From the sequence record PQ510734.1: a stretch of DNA of 64,000 nucleotides; one strand, written 5' to 3'. The translations under genes were made by a program, and so were the position numbers. This document shows, in pieces, positions 35,458 to 39,791 of the stretch. This stretch comes from Escherichia phage A6-6. Every line of letters starts with the position of its first letter. Position 1 is the first letter of the stretch. Under the pieces are notes generated by a model. It made no database searches. It was not told where the DNA came from and was given only the letters and a program-made list of their open reading frames with translations.

Positions 35458-36348
35458 ATGTCAGTAGCAATTAATAATGTCAATGCAGTAATTAAATCTT
35501 TAGTTAATAAAAAAATGATGAATGAATGGACTGTATTTCGTCGTGGAGAGCCAGATAAATTTTTTCATAGATTTAACCCAACTTTGGATTTGAATGTTAT
35601 TGACAGAGATGTTCATGCTGAAATTTTAGATAAATTTAAAGTTGATATTGGGTTTGGATTAGAAAAACATTTACAGCGAACAAACGGGTCTGGAATGAGT
35701 TTATCTAATCGCATTATGAAAGCCCTTAATAAAATTGGAGCATTGTCTCGCATTAACGCGAGTGAAATCCTTCGTAATTATAATAAAGGATATGACCTTT
35801 ATGGTCGACTGATGCCAAAATTATCATTCGATCAAATGATCGCAGATTTGTGGGAAAATCAACGACGACTATTAGCATTAGGCGCTCGATTAGCTAAAGG
35901 TCTAGATAAACAAATGATTTTTAAGACCAATAATACAGAAGACCTTAAATGCTTTAAATTTAGTATTCGTGGCGATGATTATTACATCAGAGCTCACTCT
36001 ACAGATTATGTTAATATGGGGCATCATCTCTGTTTAGCTTTTGAAGTTTTAAAAGAAGCTGGAACATTAGAATATTCATCTGGTGAAAAATGCCCTATTG
36101 GTTCAAGCTGTATTTTAATTTATCGCCCGGATGAATCCAGTTCAACTAAATTGCCTACGAAACCTGTACCAGTTCGTAGTAACGAAAAACATTCTGAACA
36201 AATTGATTATTTTAATAAGCAGATTGAAGAGCTGAATATTTCTATTCAACAATATGACGATGAAATTTTCAGACTATCTGGATTGAGTAGTAAAGCTAAA
36301 TCTGAGCGTGAAAAGTTAATTAAAATCGTTGATTTACTTAAATCTTAA
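35458..36348 (+). CDS. Coiled-coil-tailed paralog 1 of a four-gene tandem family
   Basis: 296 aa; central motif LWENQRRLLALGARL; C-terminal heptad coiled coil ...KAKSEREKLIKIVDLLKS. Confidence 0.55.
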   Translation: MSVAINNVNAVIKSLVNKKMMNEWTVFRRGEPDKFFHRFNPTLDLNVIDRDVHAEILDKFKVDIGFGLEKHLQRTNGSGMSLSNRIMKALNKIGALSRINASEILRNYNKGYDLYGRLMPKLSFDQMIADLWENQRRLLALGARLAKGLDKQMIFKTNNTEDLKCFKFSIRGDDYYIRAHSTDYVNMGHHLCLAFEVLKEAGTLEYSSGEKCPIGSSCILIYRPDESSSTKLPTKPVPVRSNEKHSEQIDYFNKQIEELNISIQQYDDEIFRLSGLSSKAKSEREKLIKIVDLLKS

Positions 36349-36356
36349 GGAATACC

Positions 36357-37385
36357 ATGAAAACTCGTTCTCAAATTGAAGATATGGTTCGTAATGCCAG
36401 CTATACTCGTGATGTTATGACATTTTTGTGTGAAAATAATTTAGACCCTGATAAAGTTAATCGTGTTATTCATCACTTTAAGTATACGAATAGCAGTGAA
36501 TGGGTGCGTAATTTTAGTAAAGCAGGATATATTACACAAATGACGGCCCGTGAGCAGCTCACCGATTTCTGTAAAACTATTGATTATAAAAATCCTTTAT
36601 TTGTTCAAGGCGTTGGTCAAAGTAAGGTCGATTTATCATCTGGATTTTTCAATCCAAATCATTATCGTATTGAATGGAGATTTATTGCTCTATTCCGTAA
36701 ACAATTAAAGCAAATTTTATCAACTGCGAGTCGATTAAAAGGTTCTGATATTAACTTAAAGAATCTGAAATTTGATGGTTATACTCTTCAGATGGAAGTA
36801 AGACCATTAAAAGAAAATAATAGAACTGCACGAATTAGCTTTAAACCTAACACAAAAAATTCTCTTTCAATTTGTGAATGCCTTAAATCACAGTTGACAG
36901 AAGCATTTAAGTATATGGATGTTGTTGCTAGTGTTCAGTCTAAGATTTTACCTCGTTTTGAGCGATTTAAATTAGACACAACAACATATGAACTTGATAT
37001 GATCGTTTCATTTAAATACGATTTTTTGAGAAAGGACGAAGTCCCGCAAGAGAAAAAGCAAGAAGTGCAAGATAAATTAAATTTAAATTTATCCAATTAC
37101 TCATCAAACGATCCTAAATTTTGGATGTATAGTTCAGGTAATAAGGATGCATGGAAATTCAATAAAGTGAATTTTCTTCCTGTTGAAAATCCGAGTCTTA
37201 AACCTGTTGAAAAATGGCACGCGGATGCGATTGAGAAGTCTATCAAGGCAGTAGATGATGAACTCGTTAAAGCAACTAATGAAGTGTTAGAAGCTGAAAA
37301 GATGCTAGAAAAAGCTCAAGAAAAAGTCAAAAATCTCACGAAGCAACGTTCTAAACTGAACAATGCACTAAATGCACTAAACTAG
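36357..37385 (+). CDS. Coiled-coil-tailed paralog 2
   Basis: 342 aa; starts MKTR; motif LFRKQLKQILSTASRL; C-terminal coiled coil ...KNLTKQRSKLNNALNALN. Confidence 0.55.
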   Translation: MKTRSQIEDMVRNASYTRDVMTFLCENNLDPDKVNRVIHHFKYTNSSEWVRNFSKAGYITQMTAREQLTDFCKTIDYKNPLFVQGVGQSKVDLSSGFFNPNHYRIEWRFIALFRKQLKQILSTASRLKGSDINLKNLKFDGYTLQMEVRPLKENNRTARISFKPNTKNSLSICECLKSQLTEAFKYMDVVASVQSKILPRFERFKLDTTTYELDMIVSFKYDFLRKDEVPQEKKQEVQDKLNLNLSNYSSNDPKFWMYSSGNKDAWKFNKVNFLPVENPSLKPVEKWHADAIEKSIKAVDDELVKATNEVLEAEKMLEKAQEKVKNLTKQRSKLNNALNALN

Positions 37386-37442
37386 TTTACTTCGCCACAA
37401 GGATGTGGTATAATGTTCTTACTTTCTACTGAGGAGATTAAT

Positions 37443-38444
37443 ATGACTCGTAACGAATATATCAAATCATTCAATAGCGTTATTGATGATAAAGTTAAAT
37501 CTATGTCTAGTCAGAATAGTGTTCTTTCTATTATCAATCAGTGGCTCAACAATACTGATGCAAGTATTGTTTCTTCCGGCAAATTTATTCATGAAGTTCA
37601 TAAAATTTCTAGTTGCGAATATAAAGATGATATTAAGGAAACCTTTAAAGGTTCTCGTCTTCTTTCATACTTAGTCAACAGAGATATTCTTAGTAAATTT
37701 GGGAAAGAAATTAAACGAACTAAAGATGTAGTAGGATATAATTGGTTCGGTGATGTTAATTCTTATCATCTTAATAATAAAGAAGACCCTGAGAATATTT
37801 TTACTCGTCGTTGGATTAGTAATTTCAGACTTTTCAAGAAGCAACTTCTAAAATCAGCTTCTAAATTATGCTATGGTGATTATCGTCAAATTCATCCTTT
37901 GGCTTCTGATATGATTATCGTAAAAGAATATGAGCTTGATAAAAATAAAGTAGCTATTTTTGTGAATTATGGATTTTTTACACCAAACGCTAACCAAAAG
38001 AATATTAATAAATTTTTCTCAATTGCTAGCACTATAACTTATCAATTAGAGGCGGCTTTGGGCTGTATGGAAACTGTAAAAAGTATTCATACATATCCTT
38101 TCAAAAATATGTGTGGTTGGGAAGGATATAAAATTATAATTAGCCTTCGTGAAGTGAAATGTGCGTACTCACCGACTGATAAAGAAATTTACCAACAAAA
38201 ATATGAAGAAATTGTGAATACTCCTAAAGAAGAAACTACCCTTGAGGAACTAATGGAATGTCTTGACGATTCACCTGAACCGGTAGAAATTCGTCCAGAA
38301 GTTATTGCACTAGAAAAAGCTTATAAAGAAGTTCTAGAAATTTCTAATAAAGCGCAGAAAGAATATGAGCAGGCTAAAAGGATTTGGGAAGAATCTGTTA
38401 ATCGCCTGGATCGTCTTGAACAAGCTTTACAGTTAATTAAGTAA
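37443..38444 (+). CDS. Coiled-coil-tailed paralog 3
   Basis: 333 aa from ATG 37443; motif LFKKQLLKSASKL; C-terminal coiled coil ...NRLDRLEQALQLIK; own early promoter upstream. Confidence 0.55.
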   Translation: MTRNEYIKSFNSVIDDKVKSMSSQNSVLSIINQWLNNTDASIVSSGKFIHEVHKISSCEYKDDIKETFKGSRLLSYLVNRDILSKFGKEIKRTKDVVGYNWFGDVNSYHLNNKEDPENIFTRRWISNFRLFKKQLLKSASKLCYGDYRQIHPLASDMIIVKEYELDKNKVAIFVNYGFFTPNANQKNINKFFSIASTITYQLEAALGCMETVKSIHTYPFKNMCGWEGYKIIISLREVKCAYSPTDKEIYQQKYEEIVNTPKEETTLEELMECLDDSPEPVEIRPEVIALEKAYKEVLEISNKAQKEYEQAKRIWEESVNRLDRLEQALQLIK

Positions 38445-38496
38445 TTTAAAGCCAAGGATGGCTCGGAGTATAAATCATTAACCAAGTGAGAAGAAC

Positions 38497-39426
38497 ATGA
38501 AAACTCGTAAACATTATATTGATTATTTTGACAGTCTTATTACTAAACACCGTAATTATCAGATCGGACACAGAGCAGTAATCAATAATATTCTTCGTGA
38601 TTTCCTTCAATATGTTGGCCAGGAAAATCATATCTGTAAAGATACTCAAAACGCCTATTCTCATTCATTGGGCAATTTGCTTGAATGGTTTAAACGTTCT
38701 CGTATGTTATCTTCTACTGTAGCTCGCGATAACATTAAAAACTTTATGAAGCCGAGCTTCATTAAATCTGCAACATCTATAACCGATTTGGTTGAATTTA
38801 CTATTGTTAACGATGTTAAAAAGACCCACTTGGCTGATTGGTTATCTACCATTCCTGAAACTAAATTTGCTGATAAATTTGCTTGTCAATTCAATGACCA
38901 AGTGAATATGCTTTTTAAGCATGCTCGCAAACTATTTACTGCTGGTGATGACCGTACAAATACAGTTCATGTTAAGGATTGGGTTATTGCTGATGAAGTA
39001 ACACACAAGCCAGGTGGTTCATCAGTGTTAATTAATATCCAGGTTCCTTATTATTACTCACGTAATCTTGGCACCATGAACTCTAAAGAAATTAATAAGC
39101 ACAACAAAACTATTCGTTCGTTGTCTTATAAACTCCGCATGATGTTAAAAATCATGGACGTAGTAGAAATGTATGACGAAATCGAAGATAATGGTTCAAT
39201 GTTATACAGTTCACGTATTCTAATTAAACTGAAGAACCCTAATACATATAAGACAGTTGTAAAAGAGCCTAAAGTAGAAAAGATTGATAACTTGAGCGAA
39301 GAACGTGAATATCTCAATGCTCGTTTGATTGAAGTTGAAGCCCAGATTGCCGAACACACCAAATTGTTAAAAGCTCTTAATGCAAAAGCAAATGGTTTAC
39401 GTAATGCTATTGAGGTATTGAAATGA
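38497..39426 (+). CDS. Coiled-coil-tailed paralog 4
   Basis: 309 aa; starts MKTRK; motif LFKHARKLF; C-terminal coiled coil ...[13 protein letters not shown]; own promoter-like element upstream. Confidence 0.55.
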   Translation: MKTRKHYIDYFDSLITKHRNYQIGHRAVINNILRDFLQYVGQENHICKDTQNAYSHSLGNLLEWFKRSRMLSSTVARDNIKNFMKPSFIKSATSITDLVEFTIVNDVKKTHLADWLSTIPETKFADKFACQFNDQVNMLFKHARKLFTAGDDRTNTVHVKDWVIADEVTHKPGGSSVLINIQVPYYYSRNLGTMNSKEINKHNKTIRSLSYKLRMMLKIMDVVEMYDEIEDNGSMLYSSRILIKLKNPNTYKTVVKEPKVEKIDNLSEEREYLNARLIEVEAQIAEHTKLLKALNAKANGLRNAIEVLK

Positions 39427-39791
39427 AAAAGCGTCTATTAGAAGATATTGCCGAAGCTTCAGATTTTCCTGAATGGACTCCATGCGCTGGGTTTGATAAA
39501 GGACTGTTAGTTACTGACGATTTAGATTTTAAACCTCCAGCCTGGGATGCTATTATGGCTATGGTTGAACGTCGTGAAAGGGCTTCTAAAAACGTTCCTA
39601 ATTGTCCTGAATGCGGTACTGAACAGGTTCAATTAATTAACTGGCGTAAACCGGAACTTGAATATAAATGCCGTCATTGTAAACACAAATTTAGCAAGCA
39701 TGCTCCGGAAATGGTTAAATTACCTGACTCTACTGAGTTCTTTAAAGAACTTGCGAGTGTTCAACCAATGCCTAATAATATTTTGGATTAA
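39423..39791 (+). CDS. Zinc-ribbon protein
   Basis: 122-aa ORF with CPECG...CRHCKH Cys4 pattern; ATGA overlap with paralog 4. Confidence 0.5.

Follow-up and report, generated by a model that had tools for sequence, protein, structure and literature searches.

We analysed a tandem array of four genes in Escherichia phage A6-6 (PQ510734.1), working from a stretch of 64,000 nucleotides (nt) that we call the window; all array coordinates are window positions. Region 35400-39800 matched 658 phage records, mostly Tequatrovirus of Escherichia, Shigella and Yersinia and the best at 98% identity, and by these matches the window is that of a Tequatrovirus, a T4-like phage. A preliminary description, made from the letters of the sequence, had reported four consecutive plus-strand open reading frames (ORFs) of 296, 342, 333 and 309 amino acids (aa) at this place, and the ORF coordinates agree. 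Judged by sequence identity and gene order, the four are orthologs of T4 nrdC.6, nrdC.5, nrdC.4 and nrdC.3, which we call A, B, C and D in that order. Flanked by nrdC.7 and nrdC.2 and upstream of nrdC, they lie on the strand that is transcribed early according to the T4 annotation, and blastn aligns T4 55330-48649 with window 33018-39692 as a colinear block. The array and the features adjoining it are as follows.

35458..36348, + strand: paralog A, nrdC.6 ortholog, 296 aa; PHROG 2257 (E 4e-152); GAGG ribosome-binding site before the ATG
36357..37385, + strand: paralog B, nrdC.5 ortholog, 342 aa; Pfam DUF7235 (PF23882); PHROG 2351 (E 3e-171)
37386..37414, + strand: T4 early-promoter-like element GTTTAC-N15-TGGTATAAT, upstream of C
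37443..38444, + strand: paralog C, nrdC.4 ortholog, 333 aa; PHROG 1435 (E 3e-163); GAGGAG ribosome-binding site before the ATG at 37443
38445..38474, + strand: weaker promoter-like element TTTAAA-N18-TATAAA, upstream of D
38497..39426, + strand: paralog D, nrdC.3 ortholog, 309 aa; PHROG 1435 (E 7e-117)
39423..39791, + strand: nrdC.2 ortholog, Cys4 zinc ribbon, 122 aa; ATGA overlap with the stop codon of D

Protein A is 97% identical to T4 NrdC.6 over 259 aa, B is 95.6% identical to T4 NrdC.5 at the same position and matches PF23882 with 429 bits (cut-off 30), and C is 89% identical to T4 NrdC.4, while the D allele is only 61% identical to the T4 nrdC.3 product. All retrieved homologs of A carry PF26899, and all those of C carry PF26897. 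At least 462 of the 658 matching genomes keep the full four-gene array.

Several details of the preliminary description could be traced in the sequence. B and D begin with MKTR (C begins with MTR), and the zinc-ribbon ORF it placed downstream, with an ATGA overlap, is the nrdC.2 ortholog listed above. Of its two early-promoter-like elements, the one before C has the form reported; the one before D lacks both the TG and the TATAAT and was missed by a consensus scan.

Relatedness and architecture of the four proteins

The four proteins had been described as paralogs, and the comparison bears this out, directly for C and D and through profiles for B and A. C and D share a PHROG, and align by BLASTP (E 1e-8, 26% identity over 225 aa) and by hhalign (probability 98%). 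Theirs was the only significant match in pairwise BLASTP of the four proteins, where A had no match at all; identities in the other pairs are 13-22%. Family-against-family hhalign was likewise convincing only for C-D, with a probability of 28% for B-C and P values of 0.008-0.06 for A. The strong links that an initial round of iterative profile searches gave among all four were due in part to P0161, a naturally occurring deletion chimera of nrdC.5 and nrdC.3. Because such a sequence could bridge the families, we took out chimeras and fragments, trimmed off the C-terminal 75 residues, and repeated the searches with 500-shuffle controls.

The profile links persisted in these searches, with much weaker scores. 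Seeded with C or D, they first included B at E 1e-5 to 2e-4 and A at about 1e-6 to 1e-5, and converged on 252 sequences without drawing in any of ~800 unrelated database ORFs. With tails and chimeras removed, a C+D profile scored B at 11.9 bits (maximum 8.3 in 500 shuffles) and a B+C+D profile scored A at 6.8 bits (maximum 4.7 in 500 shuffles). Homology outside the coiled-coil tail is supported in this way for all four proteins, modestly for A. We conclude, with high confidence for B, C and D and good confidence for A, that the four are diverged copies of one gene, homologous over their full length and not in the tail alone.

A MAFFT alignment of the four proteins runs colinearly from M(K)TR at the start to KLxxALxLLK at the end. 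The central motifs quoted in the preliminary description fall in the same columns in all four, a second shared motif, (F/L)xKxGxLSRxxAxxILxx(F/Y)xK, lies upstream of them, and the two conserved helix motifs of the N-terminal helical domain are this one and Qxx(L)LxxAxRLxxG. The common layout, as predicted, is a helical N-terminal domain, a small alpha/beta domain, a variable and often acidic linker, and a C-terminal coiled coil. The N-terminal two-thirds are divergent, as had been noted, but they are still homologous and colinear and are not unrelated domains. The proposed architecture of a variable N-terminal domain on a constant tail gives way to whole-length divergence of one ancestral gene. 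Each paralog family also has conserved residues of its own.

Heptad repeats at the C-termini are borne out in all four proteins: in the last 56 aa, 0.75-0.94 of the a and d positions are hydrophobic, against 0.17-0.33 at other positions (shuffle p <=0.0005 for A, B and C; 0.033 for D). The terminal pattern L..AL..LK is shared in a looser form than first given, L..[AI][LIV]..[LI][KN]. The coiled-coil ends of the four proteins fit [KR]Lxx[AI][LIV]xx[LI][KN]; among the 143 window ORFs of at least 60 aa the loosened pattern occurs in exactly these four, from which it was itself derived post hoc. In comparisons of deep alleles, conservation is highest in the tail. AlphaFold2 (AF2) predicts long tail helices at residues 243-295 of A and 284-341 of B, and searches of the tail against the PDB gave weak matches to GCN4-type and trimeric coiled coils, one at E 0.0045 and the others at E 0.12-1.

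The AF2 model of A (predicted local distance difference test, pLDDT, 78) has a helical N-terminal domain, a beta-hairpin/helix/beta domain, a disordered linker and a C-terminal helical hairpin. The model of B is poor (pLDDT 44), because the alignment is shallow; its predicted secondary-structure elements follow the same order as those of A. A Foldseek search of BFVD with the A model found nrdC.6 orthologs and, at E 5e-7 to 1e-3, uncharacterised proteins of 300-335 aa from T4-like phages. These came from Karamvirus, Moonvirus and phages of Pectobacterium, Acinetobacter, Yersinia and Klebsiella, and are syntenic in Karamvirus, Moonvirus and the Klebsiella and Acinetobacter phages. PDB searches, which included the DSR2-DSAD1 entries, returned generic coiled coils only and no likeness to DSAD1 or any solved protein.

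Distribution, alleles and history of the family

A profile of the superfamily found only 28 representatives among 1.84 billion (1.84e9) proteins. Of the 10 novel representatives that we traced, three were on 170-175 kb contigs and the other seven on shorter pieces (1.9-41 kb); every one of the 10 bearing a source name was a Klebsiella T4-like phage. As far as these profile searches reach, the family is confined to T4-like phages.

Loci from other genera were retrieved by anchoring on the conserved neighbour nrdC.10. In Moon, KMB19, Klebsiella 311F and fHe-Yen9-01 the nrdC.10-nrdC interval holds one sequence-detectable family member each, and these single copies differ in affinity: those of KMB19 and fHe-Yen9-01 are A-like, that of 311F is C-like and that of Moon is weakly B/D-like. 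We conclude that Tequatrovirus expanded the family from a single copy upstream of nrdC.2 to three or four copies.

The family member overlaps the start of the nrdC.2 homolog in Moon, KMB19 and 311F; in fHe-Yen9-01 the homolog lies two genes downstream. Across Tequatrovirus, Moonvirus, Karamvirus and Jiaodavirus, nrdC.2 directly follows a family member (window 39423-39791; retrieved loci L011 13910-14200, L013 14530-14787 and L012 14087-14347), with a stop-start overlap of 4 nt in three genera and 11 nt in Moon. That this overlap is kept suggests a conserved, translationally coupled two-gene module.

The genus holds three nrdC.3 allele classes, at ~100%, 77% and 60% identity, with T4, T2 and T6 in the 60% class. 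Compared with T4, nrdC.3 is a mosaic, its ends conserved and its middle 36-56% identical. The synonymous divergence (dS) from T4 is ~1.0 for nrdC.3 and nrdC.2 and ~0.1-0.2 for flanking genes (window 38497-39791 against L001, T4 48622-49859), and such high values amid low-dS flanks point to an exchanged allelic cassette. One locus, L007, combines a T4-type nrdC.3 with a window-type nrdC.2, which shows that an exchange does not always involve both genes. In some phages the array has three genes: nrdC.4 is missing, and the alleles A2 and B2 share 33% identity with A and 23% with B, respectively. Ratios of nonsynonymous to synonymous divergence (dN/dS) of 0.06-0.34, somewhat above those of most neighbours, indicate purifying selection on every copy.

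Deletions and other rearrangements also occur within the array. In ACG-C40 (L015 5805-6216) a deletion fuses the first part of nrdC.5 to the last part of nrdC.3, and P0161 is an nrdC.5(146-272)::nrdC.3(146-end) chimera with its junction at KVN/QVN microhomology. ACG-C40 matches residues 238-309 only, which had suggested a constant tail with a swapped N-terminal domain; we rejected this reading because the locus is a deletion remnant. In L003 (4916-5948) nrdC.4 is split into two ORFs. The T4 reference nrdC.6 (NC_000866; L001 10067-10894) encodes 275 aa, of which the last 16 residues are divergent and the C-terminal helix is absent. The product is 295-296 aa in other phages and the gene is 891 bp in the HIDEN-SEQ T4 annotation; a frameshift or sequencing difference in the reference record is the likely cause.

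Around the array, the preliminary description had put the number of ORFs between rI.1 and nrdC at roughly double that of T4. This did not hold: the interval has ~22 ORFs in 12.4 kb in the window and 20 annotated genes in 11.9 kb in T4, and is colinear throughout. The differences sit at mobD, not at the array; where T4 has mobD, the window has two ORFs of 173 and 153 aa (30656-31641). Between nrdC.11 and nrdC.10 there is also an additional ORF of 66 aa (window 32770-32970), which was the top non-self match of a hidden Markov model (HMM) of the D tail, at E 0.003. The gene nrdC.10 (window 33028-33996), for an AAA/STAND-like NTPase, is conserved much more widely than the array: 1311 phage records match it, among them those of Vibrio, Aeromonas and jumbo phages. 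It is commonly and wrongly labelled 'thioredoxin', an error that many records repeat for nrdC.2-nrdC.6. Upstream of nrdC.10 in fHe-Yen9-01, gp111 (L009 7943-8884) encodes 313 aa with a coiled-coil end, ...FIRALTALDAI, and has the length of the Foldseek match A0A1V0DXL6. It scores against none of the four family HMMs, and its position is not the usual one; possibly it is a further, remote member of the family.

Function and relation to known systems

One member of the family has a published activity. A T4 clone with deletions of accessory genes was unable to infect ECOR17, owing to Dsr1 (Srikant, Guegler and Laub, eLife 2022, PMC9391042), and T4 nrdC.5 expressed alone in trans restores infection of Dsr1-carrying cells (PMC9391042). 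Dsr1 is an NAD-depleting sirtuin defence whose sensor, shared with Avs7, recognises the phage major capsid protein; other phages counter Dsr1 by rebuilding NAD+. In the transposon maps of the HIDEN-SEQ preprint, nrdC.3-.6 and the orthologous Bas37 genes are classed as non-essential on K-12. The preliminary description had raised orthology to T4 nrdC.x proteins with housekeeping roles; the orthology is there, to nrdC.3-nrdC.6, but these genes are non-essential and have no housekeeping role.

Neighbouring genes in the window are as follows.

34461..34988, + strand: nrdC.8 ortholog, 175 aa; dN against T4 nrdC.8 of 0.005
39794..40036, + strand: nrdC.1 ortholog, 80 aa
40038-40301: nrdC, 87 aa
40697..41017, + strand: gp49.2 ortholog, 106 aa; position taken from a 97% blastn block against T4

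According to the HIDEN-SEQ preprint, T4 NrdC.1 inhibits Septu and bas37_0203 inhibits Druantia III; judged by gene order and length in the Bas37 gene table, bas37_0203 is the nrdC.8 ortholog. OLD is inhibited by T6 Gp49.2 (PMC13096335). With inhibitors of Septu (NrdC.1), Druantia III (NrdC.8) and OLD (Gp49.2) next to the array, the nrdC.11-to-49 block reads as an anti-defence island, and the array within it holds one proven counter-defence gene, that of T4 NrdC.5. The anti-defence role guessed at in the preliminary description thus has experimental backing for one member, against Dsr1; taken as a whole, both the observation made there and its interpretation stand in part.

In our view nrdC.3-.6 are probably an early-expressed, diversifying family of host-range or anti-defence factors, restricted to T4-like phages and dispensable on laboratory hosts. 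This judgement covers the whole explanation jointly: the identity of the genes, their unity as one family, its history, its function and the steps proposed below. By analogy with DSAD1 acting on DSR2, NrdC.5 would be made early and bind the Dsr1 sensor before the capsid protein appears. Bound this early, the sensor, whose trigger is the major capsid protein made late in infection, would be prevented from firing. The coiled-coil tail may supply oligomerisation, and the three paralogs and deep allelic variants may act likewise on other sensors or on other Dsr1-like alleles. On this reading the family would block defence sensors directly and as oligomers.

A more specific form of this proposal is possible, if tentative. 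NrdC.3-NrdC.6 and their single-copy relatives would be oligomeric sensor decoys, each paralog or allele pre-emptively occupying a different sensor of late structural proteins (for example of the Dsr1/Avs7 type), with the coiled coil as common assembly module and NrdC.2 as shared partner.

Several results weigh against the explanation we favour. A phenotype is known only for NrdC.5 among the four paralogs, and its effect on Dsr1 could be indirect. The HIDEN-SEQ paper does not list nrdC.3-.6 as hits, and the rows of its data returned by a term search for these genes and bas37_0198-0201 have adjusted p values of 0.8-1.0, with no significant depletion. The natural deletions, the split nrdC.4 and the truncated T4-reference nrdC.6 indicate that copies are often lost. 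As to the unity of the family, the sequence link of A to the other three is modest: a profile of A only did no better than shuffles against B or C, and the C+D profile scored A at 0 bits. Tail-only HMMs and tail-only hhalign between the families were not significant, so the tail motif is not callable as homologous on profile statistics alone. The low confidence of the B model (pLDDT 44) may count on the same side.

Among the alternatives, we regard as rather unlikely that the family consists of indirect host-takeover factors, acting on host metabolism, transcription or the timing or visibility of late proteins, with relief of Dsr1 a side effect. The known effect of NrdC.5 on Dsr1 comes from expression in trans, the PDB searches found no likeness to DSAD1 or another solved protein, proteins of ~300-340 aa with a conserved globular core are large for simple inhibitors, and rebuilding of NAD+ sets a precedent for countering Dsr1 in other phages. 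However, searches of Pfam, PADLOC and the PDB detected no enzymatic motif or domain (PADLOC gave no meaningful match), strong allele diversification is more typical of direct arms-race antagonists, and the genes are embedded among direct defence inhibitors.

It is unlikely that NrdC.5 alone counters defence and that NrdC.3, NrdC.4 and NrdC.6 are redundant or decaying duplicates without a function of their own. Natural loss of the kind seen in ACG-C40, P0161, L003 and the T4 reference record is what such duplicates would show, none of the four genes is essential, and no phenotype is given for them in the HIDEN-SEQ paper. Against this stand the purifying selection on each copy, the retention of the full array described above, the maintenance of deeply diverged but intact allele classes in A, B and D, and the conserved residues particular to each paralog family.

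Very unlikely, finally, is that the four-way family is in part an artefact, with A (nrdC.6) unrelated and alike only through its coiled-coil tail and helix-rich composition: the pairwise BLASTP, hhalign, A-only and tail-only results and the confounding of the earlier iterative run by P0161 would fit this, but the A family is still picked up, specifically and with zero false positives, by tail-less, chimera-free profiles seeded with C or D, the B+C+D profile beats all 500 shuffles of A, there is agreement in two motifs and in secondary-structure order, and the A model matches syntenic proteins of Merlin and Mineola, whose nearest sequence-compared counterparts, in Moon and Klebsiella 311F, score best against the B/D and C profiles (weakly for Moon).

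The genes have long been annotated in T4, and their dispensability and the NrdC.5 phenotype were already known; the observation is sound and the gain incremental. What is added is that PF26899, PF23882 and PF26897, curated separately, form one superfamily specific to T4-like phages, that it expanded in Tequatrovirus from one copy to three or four, and that it is coupled to nrdC.2. Neither the union of the three Pfam families nor the conserved pairing with nrdC.2 was found in the literature searched. Their relatedness to NrdC.5, the sole member with a phenotype, makes nrdC.3, nrdC.4, nrdC.6 and their alleles explicit counter-defence candidates, for which the two conserved motifs, the coiled-coil tail and the linked nrdC.2 provide experimental handles. 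As Dsr1 senses the major capsid protein, the family is tractable for asking how a sensor of late proteins can be blinded by one that the phage makes early. The locus also suits the question of how allele swapping shapes the host range of therapeutic T4-like phages.

The closest known system is T4 NrdC.5 itself (DUF7235, PF23882; PMC9391042), of which ORF B is the ortholog, while the other three ORFs are paralogs sharing its architecture; the published activity is that of the T4 protein, and for ORF B of A6-6 it is predicted. DSAD1, the inhibitor of DSR2 from SPbeta-group phages, also neutralises a defence-associated sirtuin, and does so by binding the sensor region in competition with a late structural-protein trigger. 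Its mode of action is the working model for NrdC.5 on Dsr1, so that the likeness is one of proposed mechanism; DSAD1 differs in its target, DSR2 and not Dsr1, and no sequence or fold similarity to the array proteins was found. The T-even packaged-protein family resembles the array as a set of diversified, dispensable anti-defence proteins with one short conserved terminal segment, variable bodies and allele swapping. There, however, the shared segment lies at the N-terminus and targets the capsid, and the proteins are packaged and then injected, whereas the array encodes predicted early cytoplasmic proteins with a C-terminal coiled coil. NrdC.1 (anti-Septu), NrdC.8/Bas37_0203 (anti-Druantia III) and Gp49.2 (anti-OLD) share with the array the early, non-essential nrdC.11-to-49 block, but are unrelated small proteins of 80-175 aa outside the nrdC.3-.6 family.

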